Assembly: GCA_964016885.1 (NCBI GenBank)
Contig: OZ024756.1
Coordinates: forward strand, 18,352,001 to 18,416,000
Source of the DNA: Eledone cirrhosa
Taxonomy: Eukaryota
DNA: 64,000 bases
Direction: 5' to 3'
Below the pieces are notes generated by a model. It ran no database searches and was not told where the DNA came from. It saw only the letters and a program-made list of their open reading frames with translations. Shown here in pieces: positions 1-42,643 of the stretch. The first letter of the stretch is position 1. The number at the start of each line of letters is the position of its first letter. The position numbers were made by a program, and so were the translations under genes.

Positions 1-231
1 GGTGTGGATGGGGTGGGGGCGGGGGTGGTGGGACGGGGTGTATTTTGTTAGAGGTGCCTACTGGCTGGAGTAGGTTTTACTATATATTTAGGTAAGGCGG
101 GTCTTCTCTGTTACTGAGTACCGCCAAAGGTCTCGGTCCAGTGACATTGTTTATATATATATATATTTATATATATATATTTATATATATATATATTTAT
201 ATTTATATATATTTATATATATATATATTTA

Positions 232-270
<39 letters not shown>

Positions 271-272
<2 letters not shown>

Positions 273-730
273 AAAGTTATATTTAAATTGTTGGGTTACA
301 ACTAGTAAATATTTATAACTGATATAAAAGCACTCGACAAATATTTGGAGTATATTTACAATATTAAAGAAATGGAAACTATATTTATAAAACCATATCT
401 ATTTCATTATATATATTTCAGGGATATCATATTAACAATATGCTATGCCTTCCTCAGACAAAATACAATATAAACAGTTTTATAGATAAATAGATTCGAC
501 ATACCGTAACAACATCGACTTGTATTTGAAAAGGTTGATTTGGTACCAAATCAACCTTTTCAAATACAAGTCGATGTTGTTACGGTATGTCGAATCTATT
601 TATCTATAAAACTGTTTATATTGTATTTTGTCTGAGGAAGGCATAGCATATTGTTAATATGATATCCCTGAAATATATATAATGAAATAGATATGGTTTT
701 ATAAATATAGTTTCCATTTATTTAATATTG

Positions 731-732
<2 letters not shown>
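271..732. mobile_element. Fold-back Penelope-like pLTR relic with a hammerhead ribozyme in each arm
   Basis: Palindrome 357-732 centred on ggt|acc (544/545), about 188-bp arms with one mismatch seen, plus an unpaired extension at 271-356; in (TA)n. Confidence 0.8.
620..694 (+). ncRNA. Type I hammerhead ribozyme (mirror copy on the minus strand at about 395-469)
   Basis: Stem I tattttgt/atgaaata; CTGAGGA 632-638; stem II AGG...CCT enclosing catatt-gtt-aatatg; GAAA 670-673; palindromic stem III tatata; AUA cleavage triplet ending at 681. Confidence 0.75.
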
Positions 733-768
<36 letters not shown>

Positions 769-773
769 AATAT

Positions 774-2269: not shown

Positions 2270-4768
2270 AACTTTGAAATGTTTTGGCCAGTATTGGCCC
2301 AGGCCATGTCTAACTTAATAGCACCACCTGGCGAAGTCTTTCAATTCAGGATTTGGGCACCATGGCCCATTCGAGAAGAGAATTACTGTTTGCGGAGACA
2401 TATCCGGGTGTGGGTGGTTTGTCCGGGATTACTTGGAGGAATTTGTCCAAAGACTTCTTGAATTTTGAGTGGTTAGTTTCTGTTTTGACGTGTCCTGGTG
2501 TGATGTTGAAGAGAGCAGGGCCGATTGAGGTGAAATAATTGTGCCGTATTGTTGTTATGAGTTGCGATTTAGATTTTTGAATGGGACGGATAGCACGGGG
2601 CCCAAGCCTTGGGTGTATCTTGAAGGCGATGCCAACATCATTTGGGCAGTGATGATGGAACATTTTCCACATCATGCAGATAATATAACGCTCACGGCGA
2701 CGTTGGAGTGAGTAAAGTTTCAGGTTTTCCAATCGACCCCAGTAGTCAAGGTCTGACATGCCATCTATCTTTTTCGTGATTGCTCTTTGAGGAGCTTCAA
2801 GTTTCATGATACTTTGTTTCGTGTGGGGAGACCACAGTGGACAACAGTATTCAAGGTGTGGTCGGGCGAAAGTAGAGAAGAGAAGGATAATGGTGCGGGA
2901 ATCTCTCGACTGGAAGGTTCTGAGGATCCAGGAACACATTCTGCGGGCCATGTCAACTTTGCTGCTTATATGCGTGGTCCAGCTTATGTTGCTGTCCACG
3001 GTTACTCCCAAGTCTCTGATGTTGTTAGATGCCACGAGAGTTTCCCCGGAGGGAAGGGAGTACGGGAGTTTCAGAGCATCCTCTTTTCCAAAGTGGATCA
3101 GTTCGAATTTGTCCTCGTTCAGTAACATGTTGTTCTTTTCTGCCCATTGGGTAACAGCCAGTAGGTCTGACTGAAGGCTTATCCGGTCATCCACGCCATT
3201 GATGACCTTTTGGAGCTTGGAATCATCAGCGAAAATTTTAATGTTGCTGTGTTTGATGATGTCAGTGATGTCATTAATATAGATGATGAAGAGAAGTGGG
3301 CCCAACACAGTGCCTTGTGGGACTCCACTACTGACTTTGGCTGGGCTTGATTTGACTCCCTCAACTACAACATGTTGGGTTCTGTTTGACAGGAAGCTCT
3401 TGATCCACTGCAGCAGCTTTCCAGTGACACGAATATTGGACAGCTTTCTCAGTAGAATGTTATGATCAACCCTGTCAAAGGCCTTGCTGAAATCAAGGTA
3501 GATAACATCAGTGTTGGAACCCTCTCCCAAGGCTCTCAAAATGTCATCAAAGTGATGCAGTAGTTGCGTCAGGCAATCCCTTCCATTACGGAATCCATGC
3601 TGGTTGGAGTTCAGCATATTGTTACTCTCAAGGAAGTGGGTCATTCGCGATCTCACCACTCGCTCAAATACCTTAATGATATGAGAGGTGAGTGAGATTG
3701 GACGGTAATTCACGGCAAGGGATTTGTTTCCCTTTTTGAAAACTGGGACAACAGACTGGGATAGAAGGTTTTCTGGCACATATCCAGCATCCAGTGAGTT
3801 CCGCCACAGATTGGCAAGAGGAGAAGCAAGTTGATGTTGACACGCCTTCAGGACACAAGCAGGGAACCTATCGGGACCTACTGCTGAATTATGCTTGATT
3901 TCCTTTATTGCCGCCAAGACATCTGGGGCGCCAAACGTTATGTCCGATAAGGTGTAATGGGGAGTAACATCGCCGATACAGCCCAGATCGGCCATATCAG
4001 GATTGCTGAAAACAGAGCAGTATTGTTTCTGCAGTATCTCACCCATGGTTTTAGCATTGTCTTGAAGAGTGCCATTTTCATCAATTAGAGGGCCAACAGT
4101 AGAGCCAGTGATTTTGTGTTTTTTTGCAAATGAAAAGAACACTTTGGGATTGAGTTTGATCTTCTCAATGGCCCAGGCCTCTTCAGCTCTTCTCTGATTG
4201 TTGATGAGGGACATTATGTTGTTTTGGAGGTTATGTTTTTTAATCTCTAGTGATGAAATGGCAGTCAAGTTGATGTGTTGCTGCTGACAGTATTTCAGCT
4301 TGTTGATTTTTTTTGTTCGTTCTCTTAATTTTTCTGATGAGCGTTTTTCTATTTCTAGGGATTCTGCTCTTAGATTTGTTTATAGTTCTTAATGGGGTGT
4401 GTTTAGCACATATGTTTGTAACAGTGTCCACAAATGTCTGCCAGGACTTTTTGATGTTAGTGGGTGTATGAGTGTGCGTGAAGGACCAGTCGACATGTGC
4501 AAGATCATGACTGATCGCTTCCCAGTTTGCATTGTGGAAATCCATAGCGTCAAACGGATGGACAGGAGAGATGACATTGGGTTTGTATATTGGACGGTGG
4601 AATCTCAGATCACAGAGAACCATGTCATGATCAGAGAGTAGAGTTTTCTCCACTGCAATATTGTGGATATTGTCAGTGTGATTGCTGAAAATTAAGTCTA
4701 GGACGTTTTTGTGGCACCTCGTTGGTTCGAGCACTAGTTGGGATAGGAAGAAATCATCCATGAAGTCA
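2270..4768 (-). mobile_element. CR1-clade LINE, 5'-truncated: end of APE endonuclease, RT and short 3' UTR
   Basis: ORFs 4240..4761 (EPTR..LDL..SDH) and 2346..4268 ([39 protein letters not shown]...NSL) join if one base is removed from the T8 run at 4307-4314. Flanked on both sides by (TA)n. Confidence 0.93.
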
Positions 4769-4790
4769 TATTTATATATATATATATTTA

Positions 4791-4823
<33 letters not shown>

Positions 4824-4896
4824 ATATATATTTATATATATTTATATATATATATATTTATATATATATATATTTATATATATTTATATTTATATA

Positions 4897-4941
<45 letters not shown>

Positions 4942-4962
4942 TTATATATATTTATATATATT

Positions 4963-4994
<32 letters not shown>

Positions 4995-5024
4995 TATATA
5001 TTTATATATATATATTTATATATT

Positions 5025-5075
<51 letters not shown>

Positions 5076-5114
5076 ATTTATATATATTTATATATATATA
5101 TATTTATATATATT

Positions 5115-14362: not shown

Positions 14363-14945
14363 GGTGGCTGCCAACTCGTTTTCGAGTACGGCCACTACTT
14401 TATATCCATGTAGGAGAACCCCTACCGATGCGCTGAACGAGTGTGACTTTTTAGTCCAGCCAGCGCCTTGAAAACTCTGGTACAGACACTACACTTGTGA
14501 CAATTATTGACACATAGTGCTGGGCCCATGGTACCATGTGACAAGTGCAGAGAGATCTCCAGATATAAAGCAATGCCTGTGCCGTGAAGCTTTTATAGTG
14601 AGCAAAGGCACTGCACAAAGCCAGTCCCACTCTCTTAACCAAGATATTTACCAAAAAGAAGAACAAGTCAACATCATTGGATACCATCAGAGTTGCAGGT
14701 GTTATATCAGGAGTTTTCCTTCTCCTAGAATTCTGCTTTGACAAAGGCTAAGGGGTCATCTCTCCCGGTGATTTTGGATGGCCATTGACTCTTAAGAGTT
14801 CCTTTGCCCTTTGGCAGGATGTCCAAAGTCACCCTCCTCACCAAGAAACCTTGGTGGGGTTGCCAGTTTAGTCGCCAACAACCCGACCATGAGACAGGTT
14901 GTACTGGGATACATGTTACCAGTAGCACCAACTGGTGACCTGACA
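14362..14945 (-). mobile_element. Non-coding interspersed repeat, probably an RTE-derived non-autonomous element (relative at 23484-23810)
   Basis: Blocks shared with 23484-23810 (ggctgcc..ctcgtt..gagta.ggcca; gcaatgcctgt..gtgaag; cccactctct; tcaacatcattg; tgacaaagg). The minus strand has ctaggagaaggaaaactc, like RTE 5' UTRs. Confidence 0.55.
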
Positions 14946-14964
14946 TAGATATATATATATATAT

Positions 14965-17435
14965 TATGAGCACATAAGCCAGATTGACTTCCTGCTAGTT
15001 AGGCAGCGGGACAGGCAGATAGTGTCTAATACCAAGGCATACCCTGGGGAAGAATGTACCCCACAGCATAGGTTAGTTGTTAGTGATATCTCAGTAAGCA
15101 AGAGATGGAATGAGACATATAGGAAGGTGTGGAGAAGAAAGGTCTGGAAGCTAAAAGACCTTTCACTAAAATTCAAATTTAGGAAAGCCCTTCAAGATGT
15201 ATATGACGAAAAAGAAGACGATTTAGAGACGTATGACATAGATAATAACTGGAAGTTCTTACGTGACAACTTGCTGAAGGCTACTGATGAAACCTGTGGC
15301 TGGAGCAGAGCTCCAACCAGACAGAGAGTGACCTGGTGGTGGAACAGCAGTGTAGATAAGGCTATTAGAGACAAAAGACTAGCATGGAAGGCTTGGAATA
15401 AGGGTGGGAGTAGGGAAGAATATACAGCCACTAAGAGAGAAGCTAGACGTCAGGTGTACTTAGCACGCAGGGAGGCAGAGAGTAGGAGGTTTGCCAATGT
15501 TCTGCGACGGGAAGATCAGAGGCGTGCGGTGTTCCACATTGCAAGGCAGTGTGTCAATGCAAATCAGGATGTTGTTGGTGATAAATGTGTCCGGGATGAT
15601 GCCGGTGTACTTAGTGTCACGAATGACCAGAAAAAGGAGGCCTGGAAATGTCATTATGAGAGACTGATGAATGTGGAGAACGAATGGGAGAGAGAGAAAT
15701 TACCCTTGGTAGATCCGACAGAGGGACCAGCTATTGAGATTGACGAATATAGGGTCCAAGAGGCGATTAGGGAAATGAAAAATGGTAAGGCGGCCGGACC
15801 ATCGGGAATAGTTGCTGAGATGCTGAAGGCATCAGGGGACGTAGGCACTAAACTGGTTGCACGCATAATCAATCAGGCTATATATGGTGGTGTCATACCC
15901 AAAGACTGGTGCAGCAGTATTCTCATAAATTGCTACAAAGGTAAAGGGGATGCTTTGGAGAGGAGCAATTATAGGGGTATAAAACTGATAGATCAGGTTA
16001 TGAAAGTGGCAGAAAGGATTCTAGCACAACTAATTAGAGAAAGGGTCAAACTAGATGAGATGCAGTTTGGTTTTGTGCCTGGGAAGAGTACAACAGACGC
16101 CCTCTTCTTGGTGAGACAAATGCAAGAGAGGTTCTTAGAGAAGAATAAGCCACTATACTTAGCCTTTGTTGACCTAGAGAAGGCCTTTGATAGGGTACCC
16201 CGATCTGTCATCTGGTGGTCCCTAAGGAAGCTGGGTGTTGAGGAATGGCTTGTAAGGACAGTGCAAACTTTGTACAGAGGTACTCTCAGTAAAGTCAGGG
16301 TAGGAATGGAGTTTAGTGAGGAATTCCAGATACAAGTAGGAGTACATCAGGGTTCGGTCCTCAGCCCGCTCTTGTTCATTATAGTCCTCCAAGCCATAAC
16401 AGAGGAGTTTAAGACTGGCTGTCCATGGGAACTTCTCTATGCTGACGATCTGGCTCTTATGGCAGAATCAGTAGAGGAGCTAGAGAATAAATTCCGGCTA
16501 TGGAAACAGCAGTTGGAAGCAAGAGGACTGAGAGTAAATCTAGCTAAGACAAAAGTGTTGATGAGTAGAAAAGAGGACAAAACCCTGATTCCGTCAGGGA
16601 AATGGCCATGTTCGATATGCAGAAAAGGAACTGGCATAAATTCTATAAAATGCACACAATGTAGGTCCTGGGTACACAAGAGATGTAGCGGGATAGCAGG
16701 CAAACTAACAGGTAGGGAGAAATATGTATGCAGTAGATGTACAGGGAAATTAGACAGTAGAAGTCGCACTGATAGACACATTTTTCAAATGCGAGAGGGC
16801 GCTATAGAAGTGGTGGATAGCTTCCGGTACCTAGGAGATCAGATTAGCATGGGAGGAGGGTGTTCCGAGGCCATAGTATCTAGAATAAGGACGGGTTGGA
16901 AGAAGTTTAGGGAGCTGCTTCCTCTGTTGACGAAGAAGGGTTTCTCCCTGCGTACGAAAGGCCGGTTGTATGATGCCTGTGTGAGGAGCGCGATGCTGCA
17001 TGGTAGTGAGACATGGGCAGCTACCGCAGAAGATATGCGACGGCTGGAGAGAAATGAGGCAAGCATGCTCCGTTGGATGTGCAGTGTAAATGTGCGTGAA
17101 CGACCCAGCATAAATGTGTTGAGAGAGAAACTGTGTCTGAGAGGGATAGAATGTAGTGTACGGGAGAGGAGACTGAGGTGGTATGGACATGTGATGCGCA
17201 TGGAGGATGACCGATGGGTGAAGAAGTGCCAGGAAATGCCAGTTGAAGGAAGACGTGGTAGAGGTAGACCACGAAAAACATGGGCGGAGGTGGTGAGAAC
17301 AGACCTCAGATCATTGAAGCTCACGGTGGAGATGACGAGGGACCGTGACGAGTGGAGAGATGCTGTGCTGAATAAGACCCGTCCCACCCTTGCAAGCAGG
17401 GAAAAGCGGACGTAAAATGATGATGATGATGATGA
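14965..17435 (+). mobile_element. RTE-clade LINE, 5'-truncated, with an uninterrupted ORF (APE end, RT with internal PHD finger) and (ATG)n tail
   Basis: 797-aa ORF 15022..17415, whose frame stays open back to about 14965 (SQIDFLL). Motifs QHRLV, NYRGIKL, FVDLEKAFD, GVHQG, YADD, YLG, RLRWYGHV, GRGRPRKTW. Flanked by (TA)n. Confidence 0.95.
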
Positions 17436-18183: not shown

Positions 18184-18787
18184 AAATATTAAACAAATAA
18201 TGAATAAACAATTCCTTATATTAAACAAAAAAAGTTCATTATTTAACGATCGTTTCTAGGATATATAACGATCTTTCCATGATATCCGGAATACATTGAG
18301 TTCTTCATACGGATTGGACACTACCGTAAACTCTTGGTAGATTTATCTACATATATATATATATATATATATGTGTAAAATGTATATGTAATGTATATAT
18401 ATAATATATATATAAAATGTATATATTTATATATGTGTACATGACCACACAACACCATGTGTGTGTGTGTATATATATATTTATATATATATATATAACA
18501 ATCAGAATGGATGCAGTAAAAACCAGTTAGACCATACTCTGAACATATCACACACACACTATATATATGTATATATATATATATATATTTATTAAAATAA
18601 CAGATTAAAGTTTAAGCAAAGAATCGCTGCTTTCACAGGATCTTCTGAAACTAAAAAAGTCAATCTGTGATATTTCCTCTACGGTTCTTATATATCTGAT
18701 ATATATGTCCTTATCGAGCCCTCTTTGGATTTTAGTCTTCAAATTTATTATTATTACTATTATTATTACTATATATATATATATATT

Positions 18788-19326
18788 CGATATTAACAAA
18801 TGGAAACTATATTTATAAAACCATATTTATTTCATTATACATATTTCAAGGACTCCAAGTTAAATTATGGTGTGCTTTCATCAGATAAAATATAATATAG
18901 ATCAGTTTTATAAATAAATATTGACATACCCTTAAAAAATGCAACCATTACTGTTGGAAGCTCCCGGGAGCTTCCAACAGTAATGGTTGCATTTTTTAAG
19001 GGTATGTCAATATTTATTTATTTATTTATAAAACTGATCAATATTATATTTTATCTGATGGAGCTTCCAACAGTAATGGTTGCATTTTTTAAGGGTATGT
19101 CAATATTTATTTATAAAACTGATCTATATTATATTTTATCTGATGAAAGCACACCATAATTTAACTTGGAGTCCTTGAAATATGTATAATGAAATAAATA
19201 TGGTTTTATAAATATAGTTTCCATTTGTTAATATCGTATTTTTACTCCAAATATTTGTTGAGTGCTTTATATCAGTTATAAAAATATTTGCTTGTTGTAT
19301 TCCAACAATTTAAATAAAACTTTTAC
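18788..19326. mobile_element. Second, diverged fold-back Penelope-like pLTR relic of the same family as 271-732, in opposite orientation
   Basis: Centre ctccc|gggag at 18965/18966; internal ~94-bp duplication; unpaired tail 19237-19326 homologous to the reverse complement of 271-356. Confidence 0.8.
19128..19201 (+). ncRNA. Type I hammerhead ribozyme (mirror copy on the minus strand at about 18825-18896)
   Basis: CTGATGA 19140-19146; stem II AAG...CTT; GAAA 19177-19180; stem III tatgta; AUA; stem I tattttat/atgaaata. Confidence 0.78.
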
Positions 19327-19689
19327 ATATATATATATATATATATAGTGTGTGTGTGTGATATGTAGTGGCTATTTAACCCCAGTTAAGTTCTGACTGA
19401 GCAGACATATAATCCAAGGCATTCCGGCTGTGACCATCCTGTTTTATTTTGCCCAATGTTCAGGGAACCCACATCCATGTTATTGTATATGTTCTCTTCC
19501 TAAGATGGTAAATAGTATGTGCAATTGAGGTAATTTGACTGCTACTTCTAACATGTTAAACGATCATTTAAAGGTTCCCTCATTGGTAGATTGATGTTTT
19601 TTGTAGTGTAGTGTAGTGTAAAAGAAGTGTCATGTGATATAGTAGCATGGTATGTAATGTTGGTGTCATGTGGAATGTAGTTAATGTGT

Positions 19690-30593: not shown

Positions 30594-31460
30594 ATACACA
30601 CACAAACTATACGGATAAAATATCTTTTTATTACTTATCTCATTAGCTCTTTTTGATTACCAACTGTAAGGGGTATTCGATACTTCCCCTAGTCTGTCAT
30701 GGATTACTAGCTTTATGCGGAGTTTAAATTGAATAAATAACTATAAAAGCATCAAAATTTGTTTTCACTCTCAAAAGCATCATTATGTTGGAAGGGAGAT
30801 AATTCATATCCTCTGCCAAAGCCGACTGACAGACTTATATATCATTCAAGTGTATTTGTTGTCGTTCTTGTTATTTAGCTTCAGTTTCTACTTGATAAAA
30901 TACCTTCCAGCTTTGATCATACACTTGCAACTTGATCGTGTGTATCTATATTAAAATACCTTCCAGCCGTGACCATTCTGTTGTTTTTGCTATATGTTCC
31001 CCACCTCTTTTAAAACTGTACGTTGTGATTTGGTAGGGATTTCACTATTAGTTTTAGCCGGTTGAGAGACCACGTAGAAGCGCCTTGTATTAAGAAGGTA
31101 TAGGCGGTGAATTGTCAGAGTCGTGAGAACGTCAGGTAGAATGTTTTGCGGTATTTGTTTCGGATCTTTGCATTTTCTGGGCTCAACTTAACCTTTCATC
31201 CTTTCGAGGTCGATAAAAAAGTACTATTCCAGTACTGGGGTTGATTCTTCCTCTATATCTCTTTCTCAATCTTATCTCACTCATTCTAATTTATTTAAAC
31301 ATTAGCAAAATATTTAATATATAAAATCTCACAATGTCATGAAAGGCCATTGCCATTATATAAAAATAATTGAACAGGATCTAATAAAAACAAAACACAC
31401 TATTACAGGGAAAGGAAGAAAATGAAAAAGAGAGAAAAAGAGAGTAACGACAGAAAGTAT

Positions 31461-32530
31461 CTAGCCCACACTGTAGAGTGGTCGTGTAGGTGTCATGACA
31501 AAAAGCACCCAGCCCACACTGTAGAGTGGTCGTGTAGGTGTCATGACAAAAAGCACCCAGCCCACACTGTAGAGTGGTCGTGTAGGTGTCATGACAAAAA
31601 GCACCCAGCCCACACTGTAAAGTGGTCGTGTAGGAGTCATGACAAAAAGCACCCAGTCCACATTGTAGAGTGGTCGTCTAGGTGTCATGACAAAAAGCAC
31701 CCAGCCCACATTGTAGAGTGGTCGTATAGTTGTCATGACAAAAAGCACCCAGCCCACACTGTAGAGTGGTCGTATAGGTGTCATGACAAAAAGCACCCAG
31801 CCCACACTGTAAAGTGGTCGTGTAGGTGTCATGACAAAAAGCACCCAGCCCACATTGTAGAGTGGTTGTATAGTTGTCATGACAAAAAGCACCCAGCCCA
31901 CACTGTAGAGTGGTCGTATAGGTGTCATGACAAAAAGCACCCAGCCCACATTGTAAAGTGGTCGTATAGGTGTCATGACAAAAAGCACCCAGCCCACATT
32001 GTAGAGTGGTCGTATAGGTGTCATGACAAAAAGCACCCAGCCCACATTGTAGAGTGGTCGTATAGTTGTCATGACAAAAAGCACCCAGCCCACACTGTAA
32101 AGTGGTCGTGTAGGTGTCATGACAAAAAGCACCCAGCCCACACTGTAGAGTGGTCGTATAGGTGTCATGACAAAAAGCACCCAGCCCACACTGTAGAGTG
32201 GTCGTATAGGTGTCATGACAAAAAGCACCCAGCCCACACTGTAGAGTGGTCGTATAGGTGTCATGACAAAAAGCACCCAGCCCACACTGTAAAGTGGTCG
32301 TGTAGGTGTCATGACAAAAAGCACCCAGCGCACACTGTAGAGTGGTCGTATAGGTGTCATGACAAAAAGCACCCAGCCCACACTGTAGAGTGGTCGTGTA
32401 GGTGTCATGACAAAAAGCACCCAGCCCACACTGTAAAGTGGTTGTGTATGTGTCATGACAAAAAGCACCCAGCACACACTGTAAAGTGGTCGTGTAGGTG
32501 TCATGACAAAAAGCACCCAGCGCACACTGT
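31461..32530 (+). repeat. 48-bp tandem array (~22 units) expanded inside a SINE; the normal SINE 3' end follows at 32530-32690
   Basis: Unit gtcatgacaaaaagcacccagcccacactgtagagtggtcgtgtaggt; the last unit runs into gaagggcatccagctgtagaaa...gatgttaaacgatgatgatg. Confidence 0.95.
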
Positions 32531-32739
32531 AAATGTTGTTGGCATTACGAAGGGCATCCAGCTGTAGAAACCAATCCCAAATCAGTTCTGTGTGAGCAAA
32601 ACACGTTCTTCCGACCTGATCTCTCACAAAGGGATAGCCCCTTCTATCCAAGCTAGCGTGGAAAATGGATGTTAAACGATGATGATGACCAATCGGTGGA
32701 AGAAAGGGTGGGCAGAGAGGCAGTCACTCCACCCCAGTC

Positions 32740-42554: not shown

Positions 42555-42643
42555 TCATTTTCATCTGACGAGATCAGTGATAATCGATCATGGCTACATG
42601 ATCGATCTATCTCTTATTGAAACATGTGTCGGGATTAAAATGA
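42555..42643 (+). ncRNA. Hammerhead ribozyme motif, stem I slightly decayed
   Basis: tcattttcat CTGACGA, long stem II capped by atcgatcatg-gcta-catgatcgat, GAAA catgtg TC gggattaaaatga. Confidence 0.62.

Follow-up and report, generated by a model that had tools for sequence, protein, structure and literature searches.

A head-to-head pair of Penelope-like pLTR fragments with a predicted hammerhead ribozyme on each strand in Eledone cirrhosa

The window analysed here (64,000 nt of Eledone cirrhosa contig OZ024756.1, positions 18,352,001 to 18,416,000) contains at 271-732 a palindrome that is almost certainly a pair of stubs of a Hydra-type Penelope-like element (PLE). Both arms are 5'-truncated copies of the pLTR of a ~3.86-kb autonomous element, whose family is young and high-copy, and a ribozyme is predicted on each strand of the pair. 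This structure is a described arrangement and a known outcome of PLE insertion, and it therefore does not constitute a new RNA family; the 271-732 copy itself is most likely inert. The new detail is that the 5' ends of the insertions pile up at an initiator-like site in two families, although this may already be in print. Head-to-head pairs of this kind are probably made by twin priming on one source RNA whose start site bounds both arms.

Arms 357-544 and 545-732 (188 bp each) are reverse complements of each other with zero spacer and the centre at 544/545, the only mismatch between them being at 369/720. Complementarity stops at 356/733 and collapses past 350/739, the flanks are not mirrored, and (TA)n adjoins both ends of the element. 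The pLTR numbering used below takes the centre as its origin (P1 is 545 on the + arm and 544 on the - arm). The central TA occupies +3/+4 counted from the inferred start A (see below), where full-length copies read CACT-ACC. What the original prediction had read from this stretch was confirmed: the palindrome with its 188-bp arms and single mismatch, the extra tail of ~86 nt on one arm (271-356), the insertion into (TA)n and the lack of an ORF in this copy. The long hairpin that had been proposed for read-through RNA was also recovered computationally (185 pairs, -289 kcal/mol), and it would hide the ribozyme.

Table 1. Features of the palindrome at 271-732 and of the related fold-back of the sister family (positions in the window)
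Feature	Position	Strand	Basis or remark
Tail-bearing arm, pLTR P1-P274 of Hydra-clade PLE	271..544	-	Over 274 nt, 99% identity with each pLTR of full-length L031, L032, L033
86-nt tail, P189-P274	271..356	-	Bounded by the two fixed 3' ends of the family
Tail-less inverted arm, P1-P188	545..732	+	
Zero-spacer centre, self-complementary TA	544..545	.	Template sequence for both arms
(TA)n-rich target, left flank	152..270	.	
(TA)n-rich target, right flank	733..770	.	
Type I hammerhead, short palindromic stem III, predicted cut after 681	624..689	+	Motif scan, folding, sister comparison
Mirror hammerhead on tail-bearing arm, predicted cut between 408 and 407	400..465	-	Motif scan, core at 457
Downstream-promoter-element-like AGTCG, +28 to +32 from initiator A	570..574	+	Consensus and spacing as given in PMC5580651; putative function
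Mirror copy of AGTCG word	515-519	-	
Sister-family fold-back, same build, ~83% identical	18785..19327	.	Motif scan, comparison
Sister fold-back, tail-less arm	18785-18964	-	
Sister fold-back, centre CCC/GGG	18966/18967		
Sister fold-back, partial repeat, 93 nt	18967-19059		Stops at hammerhead core, restarts near inferred start site
Sister fold-back, tail-bearing arm	19060-19327	+	
Sister fold-back, hammerhead cores	19140 (+), 18884 (-)		

Creation of the palindrome during assembly, from fold-back chimeric reads, is extremely unlikely. None of the public contigs or reads searched, including RAD reads, bridges the centre with 31 nt on each side, as would be expected of an artefact; however, the mirror ends exactly at the element boundaries and leaves the flanks unmirrored, the arms differ at one base, the centres differ among loci, and short-read contigs contain related head-to-head junctions (with the centre 3 nt shorter in X1 and with a loose end in X3). 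Elsewhere in the window, the short non-repetitive pieces between (TA)n tracts to the left and right of the palindrome (57-151 and 771-852) resemble other mobile-element ends. Two open frames on the - strand (2346-4379 and 14944-17415, 677 and 823 aa) look by eye like LINE reverse transcriptases, and 31374-32723 is a tandem array with a unit of ~42 nt that is open in several frames.

The genome search with one arm gave at least 53 matches in the 40 that were scored of 1074 candidates, mostly 99-100% identical. Several of them form direct pairs 3827-3856 bp apart, i.e., full-length tandem copies, and one of these (L032) has an open 736-aa ORF between its two pLTRs (2904-5114, - strand); the versions in L031 and L033 are broken. 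The ATG lies at P324, with ribozyme and tail upstream of it. Pfam and PDB sequence searches with the 736-aa ORF gave no match, and 208 relatives of the protein were found among 7999 scored candidates (30-42% identity in the 120 listed); the few listed with an organism name are cephalopod. Its AlphaFold model (pLDDT 90) has telomerase TERT as the top Foldseek match (E 4.4e-9). The ORF contains the motifs RIRWR at 35 (R replacing the K of RWK), DKT at 118 (replacing DKG), YRDD at 352, CxCX5C at 595 (CNCRDRSKC), Y616..YVG and, around the conserved E and N, CDLCAEE at 693, N711 and CKH at 720, the C-terminal ones corresponding to a putative endonuclease of the GIY-YIG type. Such motifs, a (TA)n target and hammerheads are described for the Hydra clade of PLEs (PMC8557442). 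Because of the full-length copies, the ORF motifs and the TERT-like fold, we regard the arms as truncated pLTRs of an autonomous Hydra-type element, which agrees with the Penelope-like origin and the inverted pLTR put forward originally. As in the Hydra clade, the pLTRs of the parent family occur as partial tandem and inverted copies, and a tail is present. A term search of the PMC8557442 supplement with the first residues of the ORF gave 0 matches. Note that the L032 ORF is a candidate for in vitro work on the Hydra clade.

Both arms carry the complete type I hammerhead arrangement that had been claimed for them, with CUGANGA and GAAA cores, three stems and an NUH site. In the + arm, the core is formed by CTGAGGA (632-638), GAAA (670-673) and AUA (679-681), and cleavage is predicted after 681. 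Stem II (639-669) includes C.C and G.A mismatches, stem III has just 2 bp within the palindromic ATATATAT (673-680), and stem I (624-631/682-689) has 8 bp, two of them G-U. For the monomer, folding gives the hammerhead -3.4 kcal/mol, against -7.3 kcal/mol for the minimum-energy structure. When two monomers were cofolded, stem II formed a duplex between the molecules and no active dimer resulted, which bears neither way on the hammerhead. The search with hammerhead models that had been put forward as a check was negative: no Rfam hammerhead model matched the window at gathering score, and the 20 matches with E<=10 obtained for 200-800 did not include one either. Rfam miRNA matches below gathering score merely reflect the perfect hairpin and were rejected. 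Compared with the sister family, the hammerhead shows two clean compensatory changes of stem II pairs and one change of G-U to A-U in stem I, and 95% of the stem cells are paired across 15 sequences; this covariation support is modest, because the two families amount to a single comparison. Cleavage by PLE hammerheads is described as weak or protein-dependent (PMC4209133, PMC11167929), and pairs of hammerheads lying 100-700 bp from each other, one on each strand, were found previously (PMC4209133). Furthermore, a possible third hammerhead, unrelated to both families, may be present at 42565-42622 (+), where CTGACGA...GAAA has pairable flanks.

An exact search with the 26-nt word P16-41 gave 587 matches in the genome; the census sample consists of the first 100 in positional order, which cover contig C1 completely and C2 at its start. 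Their 3' ends lie at P188 in 44 cases and at P274 in 39, the remainder running into the ORF (6) or ending elsewhere (11). Two fixed 3' ends, P188 and P274, therefore cover 83 of the 100 arms and define the tail. At the other side, 43 of the 100 arms have their first base 0 to +17 from the A of TTCACT (A = P-2), 10 of them exactly at this A; after collapsing three local duplications, the hot spot accounts for 35 of 92. No 5' end lies between P-4 and P-40, and 11 lie in P-9 to P-300. The P16-41 anchor misses arms starting downstream of P16; such arms, seen as partner arms or with a second anchor (P159-186, 2495 matches), have scattered 5' ends. Solo arms without a partner (L045, L085, L168, L170) start at the hot spot as well. 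Among 54 arms (30 taken in order of position and 24 from 20 chosen loci), none begins at the predicted ribozyme cut, P136-140, and ribozyme-cut RNA was therefore rejected as the template. The original prediction had also considered that the genomic copies might be only random truncations of an autonomous Penelope: the autonomous element does exist, but its truncations pile up at a promoter-like site. Some loci in the census are more complex. In L075 (1266-2165; G000:C1:133985647-133986169), the central part of a short fold-back is present three times, with a 223-bp period and (TA)-rich spacers, and L118, L104 and L110 are insertions of three pieces whose order alternates or is offset, which suggests additional template switches.

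The 5'-end hot spot is likely a transcription start, judging from the DNA ends and motifs, since the ends pile up there, initiator-like and downstream-promoter-element (DPE)-like words accompany it in two families, and the Penelope of Drosophila virilis has an internal promoter with a DPE (PMC2377424). With the consensus and spacing given for Inr and DPE in PMC5580651, the initiator BBCA+1BW is matched in both families, and an RGWYV word follows at +28 in the palindrome's family and at +27 in the sister family. The latter spacing is one base off the canonical one, a shift that also occurs in family-A variants lacking 1 nt. The 271-732 copy has lost the initiator TTCA(+1)CT, its A and C being missing. 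The sister family has 735 matches, and its partner ORF is a close relative. About 30 of its 59 arms begin at 0 to +12 of TCCACT, and 4 at -7 to -16 (two mis-called long copies were removed from this count, and one arm is possibly counted twice). The DNA upstream of the sister boundary is unrelated to that of the palindrome's family. Other causes of the hot spot were rejected: stalling of reverse transcriptase at the upstream U-rich tract, since the sister family has no such tract, and a splice acceptor, since no AG precedes the hot spot. An extra G (a copy of the cap) was not consistently present at the 5' ends and was seen at only a few junctions (L013, L127, L173).

Inverted pairs with both ends visible were tabulated by hand; solo copies were not included, nor were four pairs of which the far end was not seen. 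In the resulting 43 pairs, the tail-less arm is longer in 22 (by at least 100 nt in 13), the tail arm in 17, and the two are equal within 1 nt in 4. Fifteen of the 43 are short fold-backs with both arms inside P-8 to P20; a rough extrapolation of 15 per 100 anchors to 587 suggests ~90 of them in the subfamily. All 28 pairs that could be typed have arms of matching haplotype, without a difference at any of the diagnostic sites typed; 7 further pairs were not typable. Among the 12 pairs for which five sites were typed, 8 haplotypes occur, with a chance of sharing of 0.076 per pair. In 4 of 11 long pairs, the ends of the two arms are no more than 11 nt apart (permutation P=1.3e-4). Other zero-spacer centres likewise lie on self-complementary words, i.e., GC in L087, TATA in L205 and the 12-nt palindrome TTTAAATTTAAA in L036. 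In L107 (2867-2945, P196-274) and L109 (1568-1667, P175-274), the tail arms comprise little more than the tail, and the opposite tail-less arms exceed 2 kb.

The arm lengths, shared haplotypes, near-equal ends and self-complementary centres, together with in vitro data on the Poseidon element (see below), lead us to favour two primings on one source RNA. This RNA would start at the initiator (internal Inr+DPE promoter) and be uncut by the ribozyme, and both ends of the cut (TA)n target would prime reverse transcription on it, from P274 at one end and from P188 at the other. Each cDNA would extend to or near the RNA 5' end, and the 3' ends of the two would anneal via a short self-complementary word (here TA), followed by fill-in and ligation. 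The ribozyme on both strands would then be a by-product of copying the same pLTR twice. Note that the concordance of the arms could also have arisen if they were copied from two RNAs transcribed from the same locus or from both pLTRs within a single transcript, or through gene conversion between them.

The original prediction had proposed snap-back priming. In such a scheme, the tail-primed cDNA would reach the RNA 5' end, fold, prime itself and stop at P188 by annealing to (TA)n. This route would explain the concordance in all 28 typed pairs; it predicts equal-ended and tail-longer pairs, and equal-ended ones make up the 4 of 11 long pairs mentioned above. The junctions of L084, L119, L100 and L112 can be drawn as snap-backs with a 3-nt loop, some short junctions recur on different haplotypes, and palindromic junctions are read as self-priming in the available text of PMC3846280. 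However, snap-back cannot yield pairs with a longer tail-less arm, which is the case in 22 of the 43 (by at least 100 nt in 13 of these), and in several loci (L101, L117, L120) the tail-less arm reaches A+1 exactly, with a truncated tail arm opposite. At 271-732, snap-back is disfavoured because the centre has no room for a loop, except if untemplated bases had been added. Altogether we consider it unlikely, although it may make some of the equal-ended or tail-longer pairs.

Self-priming on an antisense RNA template, as suggested for rotifer Penelopes, was proposed for head-to-head palindromic junctions (PMC3846280), and we regard it as very unlikely here. An antisense template does not account for the 5' ends in two families, which stop at an initiator read in the sense direction and followed by a DPE-like word of the same orientation, nor for the fact that either arm can be longer. 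A longer inverted insertion may also have lost its middle after integration, as palindromes are unstable and long inverted pairs are common in the census. Such a deletion would, however, not end at A+1 in two families, and the partnerless arms of L045, L085, L168 and L170 start at A+1 as well; we give this explanation very little credence.

A non-autonomous family of ribozyme fold-backs moving as a unit, which had been suggested for this element, would fit the short fold-backs (15 of 43 pairs) and the recurrence of the exact centre 544/545 at 3 loci with different flanks. Nevertheless, P146 is G in both arms of 271-732 and A at the other two loci with this centre; since the same centre thus occurs at 3 loci on two haplotypes, the structure apparently recurs by being remade each time and does not spread. 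In addition, centres vary among loci, the short arms fall into six 5' signature types that are all found in long copies too, and the two commonest haplotypes include both short and long arms (9/12 and 8/12). Read-through RNA of such a unit would provide a template ending with the tail on one strand only. Movement as a unit is therefore hardly credible, and twin priming from the autonomous family remains the preferred explanation.

The origin of tandem and inverted PLE structures is named as unsolved in PMC8557442; in the available text of PMC11167929, inverted pLTRs are left unexplained and the steps after first-strand synthesis unvalidated. The countable insertion products of a young family bear on the origin of inverted pLTRs and favour twin priming. 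In a search by title and start of abstract (with most subscription papers and older Penelope reviews outside its range), we found no paper on a twin-priming mechanism for PLEs, but this reading may already be in print. The family provides exact predictions for an in vitro system, i.e., the start site, the two priming sites and the TA joint. A more far-reaching scheme, which we put forward tentatively and hold to be rather improbable, is that the 276-nt RNA from initiator to tail end is a complete minimal Penelope unit (internal promoter, hammerhead and two priming sites) primed twice by a dimeric enzyme, so that perfect ~190-bp hairpin genes of the ribozyme region would arise routinely (perhaps ~90 in the subfamily) and feed dsRNA silencing of the family. 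If this were true, the origin of inverted pLTRs would be settled, and a retroelement would build its own silencing triggers.

In LINE-1 twin priming, the element RNA is primed from both ends of the target, which leads to a 5' inversion. The barely overlapping arms in L107 and L109 resemble such products. In contrast to LINE-1, the second priming site is fixed here, and the arms usually overlap, resulting in palindromes.

The in vitro work on Poseidon of Anolis carolinensis (PMC11167929) provides the closest biochemical parallel: the enzyme, a predicted dimer, cuts and extends both target strands and uses uncut RNA, with two RNA start sites bounding the tail. The family studied here likewise has an AT-rich target and would, under the twin-priming model, also be similar in its two tail-bounding starts of reverse transcription, the extension of both strands and the uncut RNA template. 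However, the start sites and the ribozyme cut of Poseidon lie inside the ORF, whereas ribozyme and tail are upstream of the ATG (P324) here; furthermore, no difference in start sites between the strands was seen in PMC11167929, while the insertions reported here pair one P188 end with one P274 end.

The Penelopes of D. virilis and Adineta vaga (PMC2377424, PMC3846280) likewise have an internal Inr/DPE promoter in the pLTR, a tail-less inverted pLTR and palindromes at inverted junctions, and a TCACT initiator-like word, as found here, was noted for A. vaga. Those papers describe single structures and favour antisense self-priming, whereas the present analysis is based on a counted pile-up of 5' ends in two families. 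Non-LTR retrozymes (bioRxiv 10.64898/2026.07.22.740005) are similarly ORF-less and pLTR-derived and contain a type I hammerhead, but they are described as head-to-tail tandem repeats. As 271-732 is a single head-to-head pair with a tail and has no head-to-tail tandem units, its identification as a retrozyme was rejected.

The Hydra clade (e.g., Penelope-13_HM and Hydra-1_Obim; PMC8557442) shares with the parent element the C-terminal endonuclease motifs, DKT, CxCX5C, CxxC/CxH, the (TA)n target and a type I hammerhead in the pLTR. According to the published description of this clade (PMC8557442), there are also differences: the unit is ~3.86 kb here and generally <3 kb in the clade (a tendency, not a strict criterion), the tail has 86 nt instead of 30-40 nt, RWR replaces RWK, and the hammerhead has a longer stem II than most of the listed Hydra ones and a stem III of only 2 bp. 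Still, the very arrangement seen at 271-732 has a counterpart in this clade, as Penelope-13_HM is shown in the supplement of PMC8557442 with an inverted 5'-truncated copy attached and with a hammerhead on both strands.
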